Shown: positions 5,245-33,484 of the stretch, one piece after another
Numbering within the stretch: the first letter of the stretch is position 1
Layout of the letters: every line of letters begins with the position of its first letter
Assembly (NCBI GenBank): GCA_016839815.1
Contig: JAEOTM010000171.1
Coordinates: 1-63,473, forward strand
Direction of reading: 5' to 3'
DNA length: 63,473 nucleotides
Source: Candidatus Hodarchaeota archaeon
Lineage (GTDB): Archaea > Asgardarchaeota > Heimdallarchaeia > Hodarchaeales > Hodarchaeaceae
Notes under the pieces: model-generated
What the model was told of the DNA's origin: nothing
Database searches by the model: none
What the model saw: the letters and a program-made list of their open reading frames with translations, nothing else
Translations under genes and position numbers: made by a program

Positions 5245-5728
5245 ATGTAAATTTATGACAGTAGTGAAGAAACTCTCCGTATAGTCGTTTTATATAATCC
5301 TGTATTAATTAATGTTGCCTTATTCTAATAAAGTATTTCTGAAGCAAATTGGATTTAATGGTGTTAAAACGGTATTTTATTATATATATTCTTACTTAAT
5401 GATAACTTAAAGGAAGAATTGAGCCTACTCCGGTCTATACGAAGAATCTCTCTTCAATATTCAAGTTTGACAGGAAATTAACTTTCAGATTTATCCCAAA
5501 GAGCCTCTCCTCTAGATCAATCAATGTTTAACAGCACTTTTGGAAGCTTAAAATCAAGAATGAAACGAATGATCACAATTCCAAGATTTTTCAGCGAATT
5601 CTTTTTAGAAAAATTAATCATTTCAAAAGTTGTTCAACAGAACTGTTGATTTTCCATCATTAACGAAAAGTGCAATTCGAATCTTTATATATAATGTTGG
5701 TTTTACACAAATTGCGGAGTCATTCTTA

Positions 5729-30219: not shown

Positions 30220-30906
30220 CTAGAACTCGATTTGAATTGAAGTAAGGAATTTCTTTAGCTCAACAGATGGTTTTTCTGCCTGATAAATGGCTCTACCAAT
30301 AATTATTATATCAGAACCGTTGTGCAAAGGTTCCTGAACAGTATCCAAAGTAATACCTCCTGCAACAGCTACTAAACTTGGTGTCTGTGCTTTGTATTTG
30401 TTGATAATATCCCAAGTAGATTTTCTTCCAGATAATTCTTCATCAATTCCCCTATGGATTATTAGCACATCAGGAAATATTTCAAACGTTTTCATTTTTT
30501 TTTCAAAATCATTAAATGGAATACCTAATGTATCTACCCAACTATCGATCTGTAATCTTTTACATTCAGCTATAAAGTTGTTTATCGTAGCTATAGGAGC
30601 AAGACCAGATACTACACATGCATCTACACCAGATTTAGCCCCTAAGTTCACTTCTAATTTTCCTACATCTAATGTTTTTAGATCAGCAATTAAATAATTT
30701 GAAGGAAAAAACTCTCTACACAAAGGAACAAGAGAACGTAATCCTTCGTTTTTCAGTAAAGGTGTACCAATTTCAATTAAGAGCTGAGTTGTAGATATTA
30801 CAGAAATTTGATCAAAGAGTTTTCTTACAGTAACAATTTCAGGTATATCAATTGCGAGTTGAAGATAGGGAGGAGAATTTAATAACCTAGGCTGAGAGCT
30901 ATTCAT
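30220..30906 (-). CDS. 3-hexulose-6-phosphate synthase (OMP-decarboxylase fold)
   Basis: LQLAID, IEIGTPLLK.EG, IADLKTLDVG, HRGIDE, AVAGGI, IIGRAI. The ATG at 30906 abuts the mobile element end. Confidence 0.88.
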   Translation of the reverse strand: MNSSQPRLLNSPPYLQLAIDIPEIVTVRKLFDQISVISTTQLLIEIGTPLLKNEGLRSLVPLCREFFPSNYLIADLKTLDVGKLEVNLGAKSGVDACVVSGLAPIATINNFIAECKRLQIDSWVDTLGIPFNDFEKKMKTFEIFPDVLIIHRGIDEELSGRKSTWDIINKYKAQTPSLVAVAGGITLDTVQEPLHNGSDIIIIGRAIYQAEKPSVELKKFLTSIQIEF

Positions 30907-30925
30907 GACTGAATTTGTCAGACAA
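30904..30925. repeat. Left terminal inverted repeat of the TnpB element (internal palindrome TTGTC-N-GACAA)
   Basis: Direct sequence comparison with 32309-32330. Confidence 0.75.
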
Positions 30926-32189
30926 TTCGTATAAAAGAATTCTGGACAGGATGAGTCACACATCCGCTATCCAGCAGGTTAGCACTCAAAGATGAGGTAC
31001 TAGCCATTGGGACTACTTGAGGAGCAGGTTGACCCCGCTGGAGAATATTACAAGCAGCGTTGATATCAGCATTGAGATGAACTCCACACCTTCGACAAGA
31101 AAAAGCTCCACGAGATCGTCGATTTTTCTTATCAATCAACCCACACTGACTGCATTGTTGGGAAGTATACGCCTCATTCACCCGAATTACCGTTATACCC
31201 ACAAGATTGGCCTTATATTCGAGCATATGTACGAATTTATGGAACGGTAGTTGGACAAATGCTTGATTAACACGCTTTCCAAGATCACAATGTTGTTTCC
31301 ACCCTAAGTTATACCCTATGAAAAGAGTATGAACGTTCTGGTCTAAACAATGAGAAATAATACGACGGGAGGTTTGATGGAAAAAATCCTGGAGGCGATT
31401 TGTTCGGAGACGATGAAGACGTAATATTCGCTGGGTTATTAGCTGGTGATTACAGGTGGTTGCTATAGAGCGATAATGGGCAAGTTGTTTGTTATACCAC
31501 TGATTGATGGTCTTTACTACCCCGCCTTTGACGAGTAAGCCGTCTGACGTAGTTACGAGGTTTGTAAGTCCAAGATCAATTCCCAACGCTCGGGAAGGAA
31601 TACTAGTAGAGGGAACAGGATACACTTGCACTTTATAGAGGATCTCAACCACGAATCGATCGTAAAAGGGGATGAGGCGCGCTCCCACGCAGGTGTCTGG
31701 CGTTACGGGAAGAGTTCCCACTGGAAAAGTAGGAAATCCGCGGGTCATAAGGTTTTTCGCAAATAAGATCTGGTTATTCCGAATACGCACCCGCGGGCGA
31801 GGAAAATTGAGCATGTGCAATCCGTTCCTAGGTTTATAACCTGGGATTCGGGGACGAGCGTGAAATTTGGTTGAATCCTGTTTCCACACTTTCAACCCAT
31901 TAAAGAAGCTTCGCCAGGTCTGTTCAATTTGCCGTAAGACCTGCTGCGGGAGGTAGCTATCGGATATTTCTTTTAACGCGAGATAGACGGGTTCGTGCTT
32001 GAGGCGATGGTAGAGCGCTTTATATTGGAGCCAGCGGCCTGTACGGAAAAATTCTTGGCGAACTTCATAGGTAGCTCGATTGTATAGGTTTTTGGCACAG
32101 GTACACAAATCCCTAAAGATGGGTCGGGGTTTCAACTGCATACGGATAGTTAACTGAGGGTGAGAAGATTTTTTGGCGCGCATTCCCAC
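30918..32189 (-). CDS. tnpB: RNA-guided endonuclease TnpB (IS200/IS605-IS607 family), rearranged RuvC
   Basis: AKNLYN, Q..LRQ....W.SFF, P.YK, RuvC-I GIDLG, IGYN.GWKQ, L.YKA...GI, NEAYTSQ, CSQC/CRRC zinc finger, RuvC-III NADINAA.NI. Confidence 0.93.
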   Translation of the reverse strand: MGMRAKKSSHPQLTIRMQLKPRPIFRDLCTCAKNLYNRATYEVRQEFFRTGRWLQYKALYHRLKHEPVYLALKEISDSYLPQQVLRQIEQTWRSFFNGLKVWKQDSTKFHARPRIPGYKPRNGLHMLNFPRPRVRIRNNQILFAKNLMTRGFPTFPVGTLPVTPDTCVGARLIPFYDRFVVEILYKVQVYPVPSTSIPSRALGIDLGLTNLVTTSDGLLVKGGVVKTINQWYNKQLAHYRSIATTCNHQLITQRILRLHRLRTNRLQDFFHQTSRRIISHCLDQNVHTLFIGYNLGWKQHCDLGKRVNQAFVQLPFHKFVHMLEYKANLVGITVIRVNEAYTSQQCSQCGLIDKKNRRSRGAFSCRRCGVHLNADINAACNILQRGQPAPQVVPMASTSSLSANLLDSGCVTHPVQNSFIRIV

Positions 32190-32308
32190 CTTTATCTAGA
32201 ATTCTTGGTCTTATAAGTGTGTACCCGAGAGAGAGGGGTGAAAATGACGAATGTGACACAATTCATCGAAATTGAACTCAGTCATTTCTGTTTTCTATCT
32301 TTTTTAGG

Positions 32309-32330
32309 TTGTCGGACAAATTCAACCATG
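32309..32330. repeat. Right terminal inverted repeat of the TnpB element
   Basis: Direct sequence comparison with 30904-30925. Confidence 0.75.
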
Positions 32331-32359: not shown

Positions 32360-33484
32360 CTAATTAAATGGAATAAATGTCGTCTGTAGATTGTCATACG
32401 AAGGATATTCTTCGGCCATACCCACCTGTGCTTTGGGGAATTTGGAGATAAGATCTTGGCTGATTTCTTCCAATAATGCAGCGTTAGTTAGAAGTCGGTG
32501 TTTTTCATAATCGATATGAACTAAATGCGCTGGGATATCCACCTCTAAAACTAGAAATTGTTTAATCTCTTCGAGATTATGATCGAATGTTTTTATGACT
32601 CCTCTGATAAGTAATCCTCTATCTGTGCCTTCTTCCACCACGACATCGGATGGGAGTTTAGTATTCATTGCTATTCGGTACAACCGGTTTGGTAACTGGA
32701 TGTTATCCTTCGTAGCGAGAGCACAGTAGTGAACTGGAATTTTTACATTTGTTGATGCCCATTCTACAATCTCGGTGGCTAGTTGTGCACTACCTTTTAC
32801 AGCGGACAAATTCATTTTATCAACTTCCAGCTTATGAGAGAGAAGATTGCGGAAGTTGGTTTCACTTACTTCGAGTTCATTCAAATTAATAAAGTAGAAC
32901 TGATTCTTTTGGGGGAGAATTGTTTCAAAATCCTGAATTATTCGTTGGTAATACTCGATTCCTTTCGTTGGAATCACAGGAATTTCGATTCCGACATCAA
33001 TATCAAATTTTGTTGTTTGTTGGATTATGTGAAGATCTTTTCTAATATTAAGCACATGAAAGCGGATTTCATCAATTACGGGTGAAATAATTGATAACAA
33101 TTCGGTATTCAAATCCTTCCCTCTAGTGTATACATGGATATGAAAATCATTTGAGAATTCTTCTTTTAAAGCTTTACAGTATGTGTAAGTCTTATCAAAC
33201 GAATGTAGTTCAAGAGGATCACCACCAGTCATACTAGCTCCTTTAGCATTCATATGGAGGGCTTCGATTAGAAGATCAGCAATACTGGAAAAAGGACGTT
33301 CATTTGCGAACGATTTGTTTGATTCTTTCCTTTCATTACTTAAAGGACAATAAAAACAATTACTGGAGCATTCCGTTCCTACAAGAACTACTAATTTCTC
33401 TCCCGAAATACATTGACGGCATCCTTTCGATAGGGGGCCTGAAAGAGAACTTCCCCAATCTGTTCTTTCAGGTTTATTAGCCAT
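32360..33484 (-). CDS. Radical SAM protein (COG2108-like)
   Basis: LSKGC..C..GEKLV...G..C...CFYCPLS, GAS.TGGDPL, HIH.YT, DEIRFH, INLNELE.SETN. Confidence 0.87.
   Translation of the reverse strand: MANKPERTDWGSSLSGPLSKGCRQCISGEKLVVLVGTECSSNCFYCPLSNERKESNKSFANERPFSSIADLLIEALHMNAKGASMTGGDPLELHSFDKTYTYCKALKEEFSNDFHIHVYTRGKDLNTELLSIISPVIDEIRFHVLNIRKDLHIIQQTTKFDIDVGIEIPVIPTKGIEYYQRIIQDFETILPQKNQFYFINLNELEVSETNFRNLLSHKLEVDKMNLSAVKGSAQLATEIVEWASTNVKIPVHYCALATKDNIQLPNRLYRIAMNTKLPSDVVVEEGTDRGLLIRGVIKTFDHNLEEIKQFLVLEVDIPAHLVHIDYEKHRLLTNAALLEEISQDLISKFPKAQVGMAEEYPSYDNLQTTFIPFN

Follow-up and report, generated by a model that had tools for sequence, protein, structure and literature searches.

Between positions 30904 and 32330 of the window (i.e., the whole stretch of 63,473 nucleotides that was analysed, a contig of a Candidatus Hodarchaeota archaeon) lies a 1.43-kb element with a terminal inverted repeat (TIR) at each end and a lone intact tnpB inside. 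It is inserted between a radical SAM gene and an hps-like gene, both of which run on the same strand as tnpB. The element end at the 3′ end of tnpB is henceforth called RE, and the end at its 5′ end LE. The features of the locus are as follows.

30220-30906, minus strand: hps-like gene (OMPdecase/HUMPS family), intact, beginning at the RE-side CATG
30884-30903, minus strand: predicted guide, ~16-20 nt directly 3′ of the RE, equivalent to hps codons 2-8
30904-30925, no strand: RE TIR (tnpB-3′ end), including the terminal CATG 30904-30907; sequence and repeat search
30908-31021, minus strand: predicted omega RNA scaffold, 3′ part, overlapping the tnpB 3′ end, with an open-ended 5′ limit
30918-32183, minus strand: tnpB coding sequence, 421 aa, intact
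32184-32308, minus strand: LE interior with the tnpB 5′ leader and a TATA-like box, kept in MITE derivatives; sequence comparison
32309-32330, no strand: LE TIR (tnpB-5′ end), including the terminal CATG 32327-32330; sequence and repeat search
32360-33484, minus strand: radical SAM gene, upstream of the insertion

The two inverted arms are 22 nt each with 19/22 positions complementary, contain the palindrome TTGTC-N-GACAA, and carry a CATG at each element tip; they were the top-scoring inverted repeat of the region in a repeat search, which together with the sequence confirmed the imperfect TIRs, palindromes, CATG tips, and solitary tnpB that a preliminary description of the locus had reported. 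The start codon of hps is the minus-strand ATG of the RE-side CATG, and the radical SAM gene ends 30 nt from the LE-side CATG. Deleting the element and one CATG in silico yielded the radical SAM stop codon, a 30-nt spacer, and the hps ATG in succession. The TATA-like box in the LE interior is a putative promoter, judging by its sequence.

Further copies, whose existence the preliminary description had left to be established, were found in the genome of the window (G000, 89.5% complete) and in sister genomes, and in every copy the boundaries of homology coincided with the TIRs. Full-length copies in congeneric genomes share 67-79% nucleotide identity, and many matches of ~117 nt to the element end were recovered as well. 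TIR and YATG bound 14/14 aligned full-length copies at both start and stop, and the homology of all other copies begins at the RE TIR. G002 has 80 and G007 77 occurrences of the terminal motif (reversed control pattern: 5 and 3, respectively); as it is also present in 14/14 full-length relatives, the 22-nt inverted repeat is no chance feature. End-to-end complementarity runs 11 nt outward of the palindrome, on its outer side only, at both ends. Hence, the ends are true TIRs and not merely two identical hairpins. TIR and outer CATG accompany the family throughout, to TnpB identities as low as 55%, whereas Lokiarchaeal TnpB relatives (42-44%) have direct-oriented hairpins at both ends instead of a TIR. 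By their public names, the hosts of the family are Hodarchaeales/Heimdallarchaeota, and the reading of the locus as a non-autonomous element of an Asgard archaeon was supported.

The tnpB reading frames are mostly intact across the family copies. Twenty small copies were sorted into miniature (MITE) classes of ~360 bp, 146 bp, and 33 bp, the last of which consists of two TIRs fused at the palindrome. G000 holds a single full-length copy, a 229-bp deletion derivative (C185:49686-49915) in which the first 80 nt of the element are joined to its last 152 nt, a 45-bp derivative (C135), and several short fragments of the tnpB 3′ end. The derivative on C185 ends exactly at both element tips, its homology stopping precisely at the LE TIR. 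Insertions are polymorphic between G002 and G007, i.e., between genomes that are ~95% identical, and the family has therefore been mobile recently. When metagenome contigs were searched for the TnpB, only short contigs of the element family were obtained, and the TIR pattern gave 43 single matches in viral contigs, which by a rough estimate is about chance level.

An empty radical SAM/hps site was likewise among the points to be checked. The junction without the element was present in four congeneric genomes with spacers of ~28-31 nt, matching the 30 nt obtained by removing the element and one CATG; the window's own exact reconstructed empty site had no match in the metagenome contigs. Two exact empty sites were available for MITEs: a 363-bp MITE at G002:C86 compared with G007:C150, where the flanks are identical and two CATG stand against one, and a 146-bp MITE at G002:C57 compared with G007:C82, which has a single TATG. 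The exact sites are clean, with no footprints. All of these empty sites (two exact sites and four junctions) have a single YATG and keep no part of either repeat, so that neither of the findings named beforehand as contradicting an inserted TIR element, copies with homology boundaries off the repeats or an empty site retaining a repeat, was obtained.

The CATG may be a 4-bp target-site duplication (TSD), as had been suggested beforehand. There are two CATG in occupied sites and one in empty sites; the palindromic CATG is nearly invariant at both ends, its sole variants being C-to-T transitions (TATG or CATA), and the variants at the two ends are discordant in 9/11 variant-bearing copies. As a target or terminal motif, this palindrome is fixed, and owing to this invariance a 4-bp duplication is indistinguishable from a terminus identical to the target, as in IS607. 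The occupied and empty states are equally expected from a 4-bp or 2-bp duplication, from blunt insertion at CA|TG, or from site-specific exchange, in which the element would supply one CATG by analogy to the GG of IS607. The sequences flanking the target are not symmetric with respect to the direction in which the element lies: T is the 5′ neighbour of the LE-side CATG at just 1/48 ends, while the RE always reads T-CATG, and the first base past the RE is A or G at 38/47 ends. The enrichment of right ends at start codons (5/32 versus 1.7%, p ~2e-4) was not accepted as evidence of targeting because, according to a rough, uncomputed estimate, selection against intragenic insertions would give a similar fraction.

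The encoded TnpB carries the Pfam domains OrfB_IS605 (PF01385) and Cas12f1-like TNB (PF07282) and scored 223 bits against the RNA-guided TnpB model NF040570 of NCBIfam. The RuvC-I and RuvC-III aspartates are invariant. At the canonical RuvC-II position the protein reads IGYN, i.e., the glutamate is missing, and an invariant alternative glutamate, E338, is situated within NEAYTSQ. In the tree, the Asgard solo TnpB clade was sister to TnpBs linked to a serine TnpA (96/100 for that sister clade; limited sampling), and the Y1-linked TnpB of the genus was placed distantly. The only TnpA-linked relatives are of the serine-recombinase IS607 type, namely one on G007:C54 with 38% identity and others in Ktedonobacteria with 32-36%.

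Full-length copies and non-coding MITEs show equal conservation of the final ~115 nt up to the tnpB-3′ tip, a stretch that in the full-length copies overlaps the coding sequence. Within this RNA-like region lie two hairpins, one conserved and one covarying, as well as the RE TIR; clear compensatory changes were observed in the hairpin adjoining the TIR, the RE tip could possibly pair with the loop of the conserved hairpin, and a comparison of the region with Rfam returned no match. By analogy to Fanzor guide RNAs, it probably represents the 3′ part of an omega RNA scaffold that ends in TIR and CATG. With the scaffold ending there, the predicted guide would be formed by hps codons 2-8, as suggested by its position relative to the RE and by TnpB biology. 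The depletion of T 5′ of target CATGs is consistent with a predicted TAM of (not T)CATG, which would spare the occupied site.

An autonomous transposase with the same TIRs, which had been postulated for mobilisation in trans, was not found in G000, G002, G005, and G007. All TIR pairs of up to 5 kb in these four genomes contain tnpB or a deletion derivative, and no Y1, Cas1, DDE, or serine enzyme is located between them. A 2.6-kb TIR "pair" in G002:C8 was rejected as an autonomous partner, as it encloses a host M48 peptidase and no transposase, and searching G002 with the outer 14 nt of the TIR alone gave no new inverted pairs. Since every TIR pair encloses tnpB or an internal-deletion derivative of the tnpB element, the proposal that tnpB had been captured by a TIR-type element is left without evidence; the TIRs belong to this tnpB lineage itself.

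The search by enzyme family gave the following results. Y1 TnpA (PF01797) was absent from G000, G002, G005, and G007; its only two occurrences, in G006 and G004, neighbour a tnpB that has 28% identity and lacks these ends, and it was rejected as partner. Cas1 (PF01867) was absent from G000, G002, G005, G006, and G007, i.e., the assemblies with full-length and MITE copies, and in this absence the family differs from Asgard Cas1-linked TnpB transposons; it was rejected as well, being found only in G004 (a 120-aa fragment), G012, and G014. Serine recombinases (PF00239) were present in 3/5 genomes searched (G002, G006, and G007; none in G000 and G005), with no gene linked to TIRs and none inside the element. 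The IS607-type element on G007:C54, which could be bounded by means of an empty site on G002:C14, was excluded as a source, having unrelated ends, no TIR, and no CATG, and a resolvase/invertase-type enzyme on G002:C2 was dismissed with no TIRs nearby. For DDE_Tnp_1 (PF01609), the DDE family searched, genes are present but none is flanked by or next to the TIRs; an insertion sequence of this family on G002:C17 has 36-bp TIRs of its own and no CATG and was rejected. All genomes are MAGs (84-93% complete), and a repeated transposase gene may therefore have been left unassembled.

The best explanation overall, which we regard as probable on balance, is a non-autonomous element of TnpB and omega RNA that inserts at CATG, is maintained by homing, and is mobilised in trans. 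The element would be an insertion sequence specific to Hodarchaeales with 22-bp TIRs that encodes only TnpB and omega RNA, and its insertion into CATG would turn an empty site with one CATG into CATG-element-CATG. The RE TIR and CATG would constitute the last ~25 nt of the omega RNA scaffold, and the first 16-20 nt of hps the guide. At an emptied site, composed of a non-T base, CATG, and the 5′ end of hps, TnpB would then cut again, and repair would use an occupied copy as template. Transposition to further sites would be catalysed in trans by an unlinked enzyme recognising the two ends, and from their symmetry it is argued that this enzyme would act on double-stranded DNA at both tips. Our leading guess for the mobiliser, put forward tentatively, is a DDE-type cut-and-paste transposase that duplicates CATG. 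The lack of any transposase gene between the TIRs in the four genomes searched argues against this guess, as does the asymmetry of the target flanks, which is not predicted by a symmetric transposase on its own; a plain TSD would further need later mutation to account for the discordant CATG variants.

A close second, possible but held with less confidence, is a non-autonomous element derived from IS607, which a serine recombinase would move by strand exchange at the AT in the middle of CATG. A circular RE-CATG-LE junction would recombine with a target CATG, each contributing one CATG with no real duplication, and the two TIRs would together make up a palindromic crossover site, one half-site each. 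The position of the TnpB next to its IS607-type relatives in the tree is in line with this, as are the empty sites without footprints and the properties of IS607 itself, which ends in GG, targets GG, uses a 2-bp exchange, and has imperfect inverted repeats near its ends (PMC6188088). Moreover, RE-CATG followed by the first 6-14 nt of LE was encountered at G002:C82:62608-62631 and in L137. The genus' own IS607-type element, however, has different ends as described above, the recombinase genes occur in just three of the five genomes with no link to the TIRs, and the IS607 family is defined as having no TIRs.

A rather improbable joint claim is that an Asgard TnpB of IS607 ancestry became Fanzor-like in its lifestyle independently, with TIR and duplicated CATG in the guide scaffold, and that it multiplies, along with MITEs bearing the omega RNA, by means of something outside the known TnpB partners, be it a new transposase family, a host enzyme, or a contribution of TnpB itself. 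Distinctly unlikely is an ordinary IS200/IS605 element (IS1341-type, PATE-like) moved by single-strand peel-and-paste through a Y1 TnpA, which would insert 3′ of a target CATG and bring a further CATG of its own as right end, with the "TIRs" as a by-product of identical subterminal palindromes. The tnpB-only content, near-terminal palindromes, 4-nt target, and terminal-only minis have their counterpart in the IS1341-type elements and PATEs of haloarchaea (PMC3119063), target choice is asymmetric and depends on orientation, and the Lokiarchaeal relatives have direct-oriented hairpins, all of which would suit a Y1 enzyme. Yet PF01797 has the distribution given above, the 11-nt outward complementarity at both ends is not needed by a same-strand mechanism, and reading the sequence 5′ of the palindromes, no guide tetranucleotide complementary to CATG was evident. 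The notion that the inverted repeat has arisen by chance or is purely local, with tnpB as a fixed and immobile gene, for which the lone full-length copy in G000 might speak, is refuted, with practically no probability left, by dozens of copies with the same boundaries and by insertions polymorphic between sister genomes. The residual share falls to a mechanism not yet described.

The preferred reading, i.e., the homing, trans-mobilised TnpB element, resembles several known systems in part. Altae-Tran et al. 2023 (PMC10691335) described solo TnpBs whose inverted terminal repeats also occur with DDE-linked TnpBs; as in these, the element is TnpB-only with symmetric inverted ends, has the tnpB 3′ end <250 bp from the element end, and is presumed to be mobilised in trans. 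In contrast to these, no DDE-linked sibling with the same ends was found for it, its TnpB adjoins IS607-type (serine) TnpBs, its CATG target is fixed, and its host is an Asgard archaeon. Fanzor1 and Fanzor2* elements occur in eukaryotic TIR/TSD transposons (PMC10711439; Bao and Jurka 2013, PMC3627910), and the guide RNA scaffold of Fanzors includes TIR and TSD (Yoon et al. 2023, PMC10711439). Like them, the element combines TIRs with a TnpB-family nuclease whose RuvC-II glutamate is relocated, and its guide RNA scaffold, here as a prediction, likewise has TIR and duplicated target at its 3′ end. In contrast to Fanzors, the Asgard element is prokaryotic, and judged by sequence (mimivirus L79 with E 8e-12 versus Cas12f with 3e-15), its TnpB appears to have no special closeness to solved Fanzor-like proteins.

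With IS607, the element shares the TnpB clade, a short identity of terminus and target, and the single copy of the latter in the empty site; it differs in the absence of tnpA, in real 22-bp TIRs equidistant from both tips, and in CATG replacing GG. Compared with IS200/IS605 elements of the IS1341 group, its 22-bp TIRs extend to the tips and are conserved throughout the family, whereas a fixed CATG and single-copy empty sites fit the insertion of that group 3′ of a fixed target as well as they fit a TSD model. TIRs are also what a DDE-type TIR/MITE system would have, but the autonomous partner with matching TIRs is missing from the four genomes searched. The IS1341-type transposons and PATEs of haloarchaea (Dyall-Smith et al. 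2011, PMC3119063) are likewise tnpB-only elements of archaea, with palindromes close to the ends and a target that is short and fixed; they too have numerous non-coding derivatives, some of them terminal-only minis, and are mobile although an intact TnpA is lacking. Unlike PATEs, which were described without inverted terminal repeats or target duplications, the Asgard ends are inverted to the tips and are both flanked by CATG.

Solo TnpBs with inverted ends and mobilisation in trans (PMC10691335) as well as Fanzor TIR/TSD elements (PMC10711439) are already published. New is the combination of an Asgard family, an IS607-clade TnpB, a fixed CATG, scaffold-keeping MITEs, and no known partner enzyme; a full-text literature search found no paper describing it. 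The question of how elements with tnpB alone can spread when no transposase is linked to them is an old one, raised for haloarchaea in 2011 (PMC3119063), and the present family, recently mobile with no transposase in sight, is reminiscent of the haloarchaeal IS1341/PATE puzzle. The Hodarchaeales family provides a tractable case, offering sharp symmetric ends, a 4-nt target, exact empty sites, recent activity, and MITEs that retain the scaffold. In practical terms, a compact nuclease with a CATG-type TAM is predicted. With TIR and duplicated target in the predicted guide RNA, as in Fanzors, and with a relocated RuvC glutamate in Asgard archaea, the element bears on how TnpB may adapt to cut-and-paste transposons.

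Family relics in G000, the genome to which the window belongs, and terminal-only copies in a congeneric genome (G002) are given below by contig (C); a MITE is a non-coding internal-deletion derivative of the tnpB element.

G000 C185:49686-49915, 229-bp MITE, flanked by TATG on both sides
G000 C135, about 2564-2608, 45-bp mini derivative
G000 C45:125574-125629, tnpB-3' end fragment
G000 C167:6677-6731, tnpB-3' end fragment
G000 C47:34142-34256, tnpB-3' end fragment
G000 C196:76920-76977, tnpB-3' end fragment
G002 C35:1462-1494, 33-bp element, two TIRs joined at the palindrome, CATG on each flank
G002 C8:64499-64531, as C35
G002 C50:11147-11179, as C35
G002 C88:41348-41380, as C35

Two of the tnpB-3' fragments in G000 end at one and the same internal position, located in the loop of the conserved hairpin. 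These four 33-bp elements of G002 contain no sequence besides the fused TIRs, and are comparable to the terminal-only PATEs of 52 bp in Haloquadratum. At two further sites (G002 C82:62608-62631; locus L137, about 5290-5310), the right end (RE, the tnpB-3' end) and its CATG or CATA were followed immediately by the first 6-14 nt of a left end, a junction that could be left over from a tandem insertion or from a circle junction.

One orthologous CATG was occupied by a MITE in two genomes (G002 C8:18882-19240 and G007 C191:21714-22081; loci L078 and L092). The two MITEs belong to different subfamilies, are inserted in opposite orientations, and the sites differ at 3 bases beside one CATG; the site could be a hot spot hit independently, or a replacement could have left a footprint. 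Co-oriented genes often begin directly at the tnpB-3' end, their ATG being supplied by the CATG of the element, for example at:

L079 (G002 C86), about 12166, tnpB-3' end at start codon
L077 (G002 C67), about 12462, tnpB-3' end at start codon
Window, 30904, tnpB-3' end at start codon

Of 32 complete elements, 5 have this arrangement, as against 1.7% of CATGs taken at random (p about 2e-4). The excess probably stems from selection against insertions within genes and not from targeting. In all copies compared, the only departures of the flanking CATG were TATG and CATA, C-to-T transitions on one strand or the other, and the inner C of the RE-side CATG was invariant; cytosine-methylation-driven decay together with an RNA-structure constraint may account for this pattern.

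A second tnpB family of the genus is an IS607-type element of about 1.9 kb (serine tnpA + tnpB; L118, G007 C54:5509-8919) without TIR or TSD, which had further matches in G002, G004, G005, and G006 and numerous tnpB-only derivatives, G004 having about 20 matches. Another element, L209 (G002 C17:78-1557), is a DDE_Tnp_1 IS. The inner part of its 36-bp TIRs, GTCCGAC, is similar to the palindrome core of the tnpB element; at the tips the two elements differ, and L209 lacks the CATG. Within residues about 288-340 of the window TnpB (30918-32183), the canonical RuvC-II Glu position is occupied by IGYN and an invariant Glu lies within NEAYTSQ; a glutamate relocated in this way has been reported for both IS607-type TnpBs and Fanzors.
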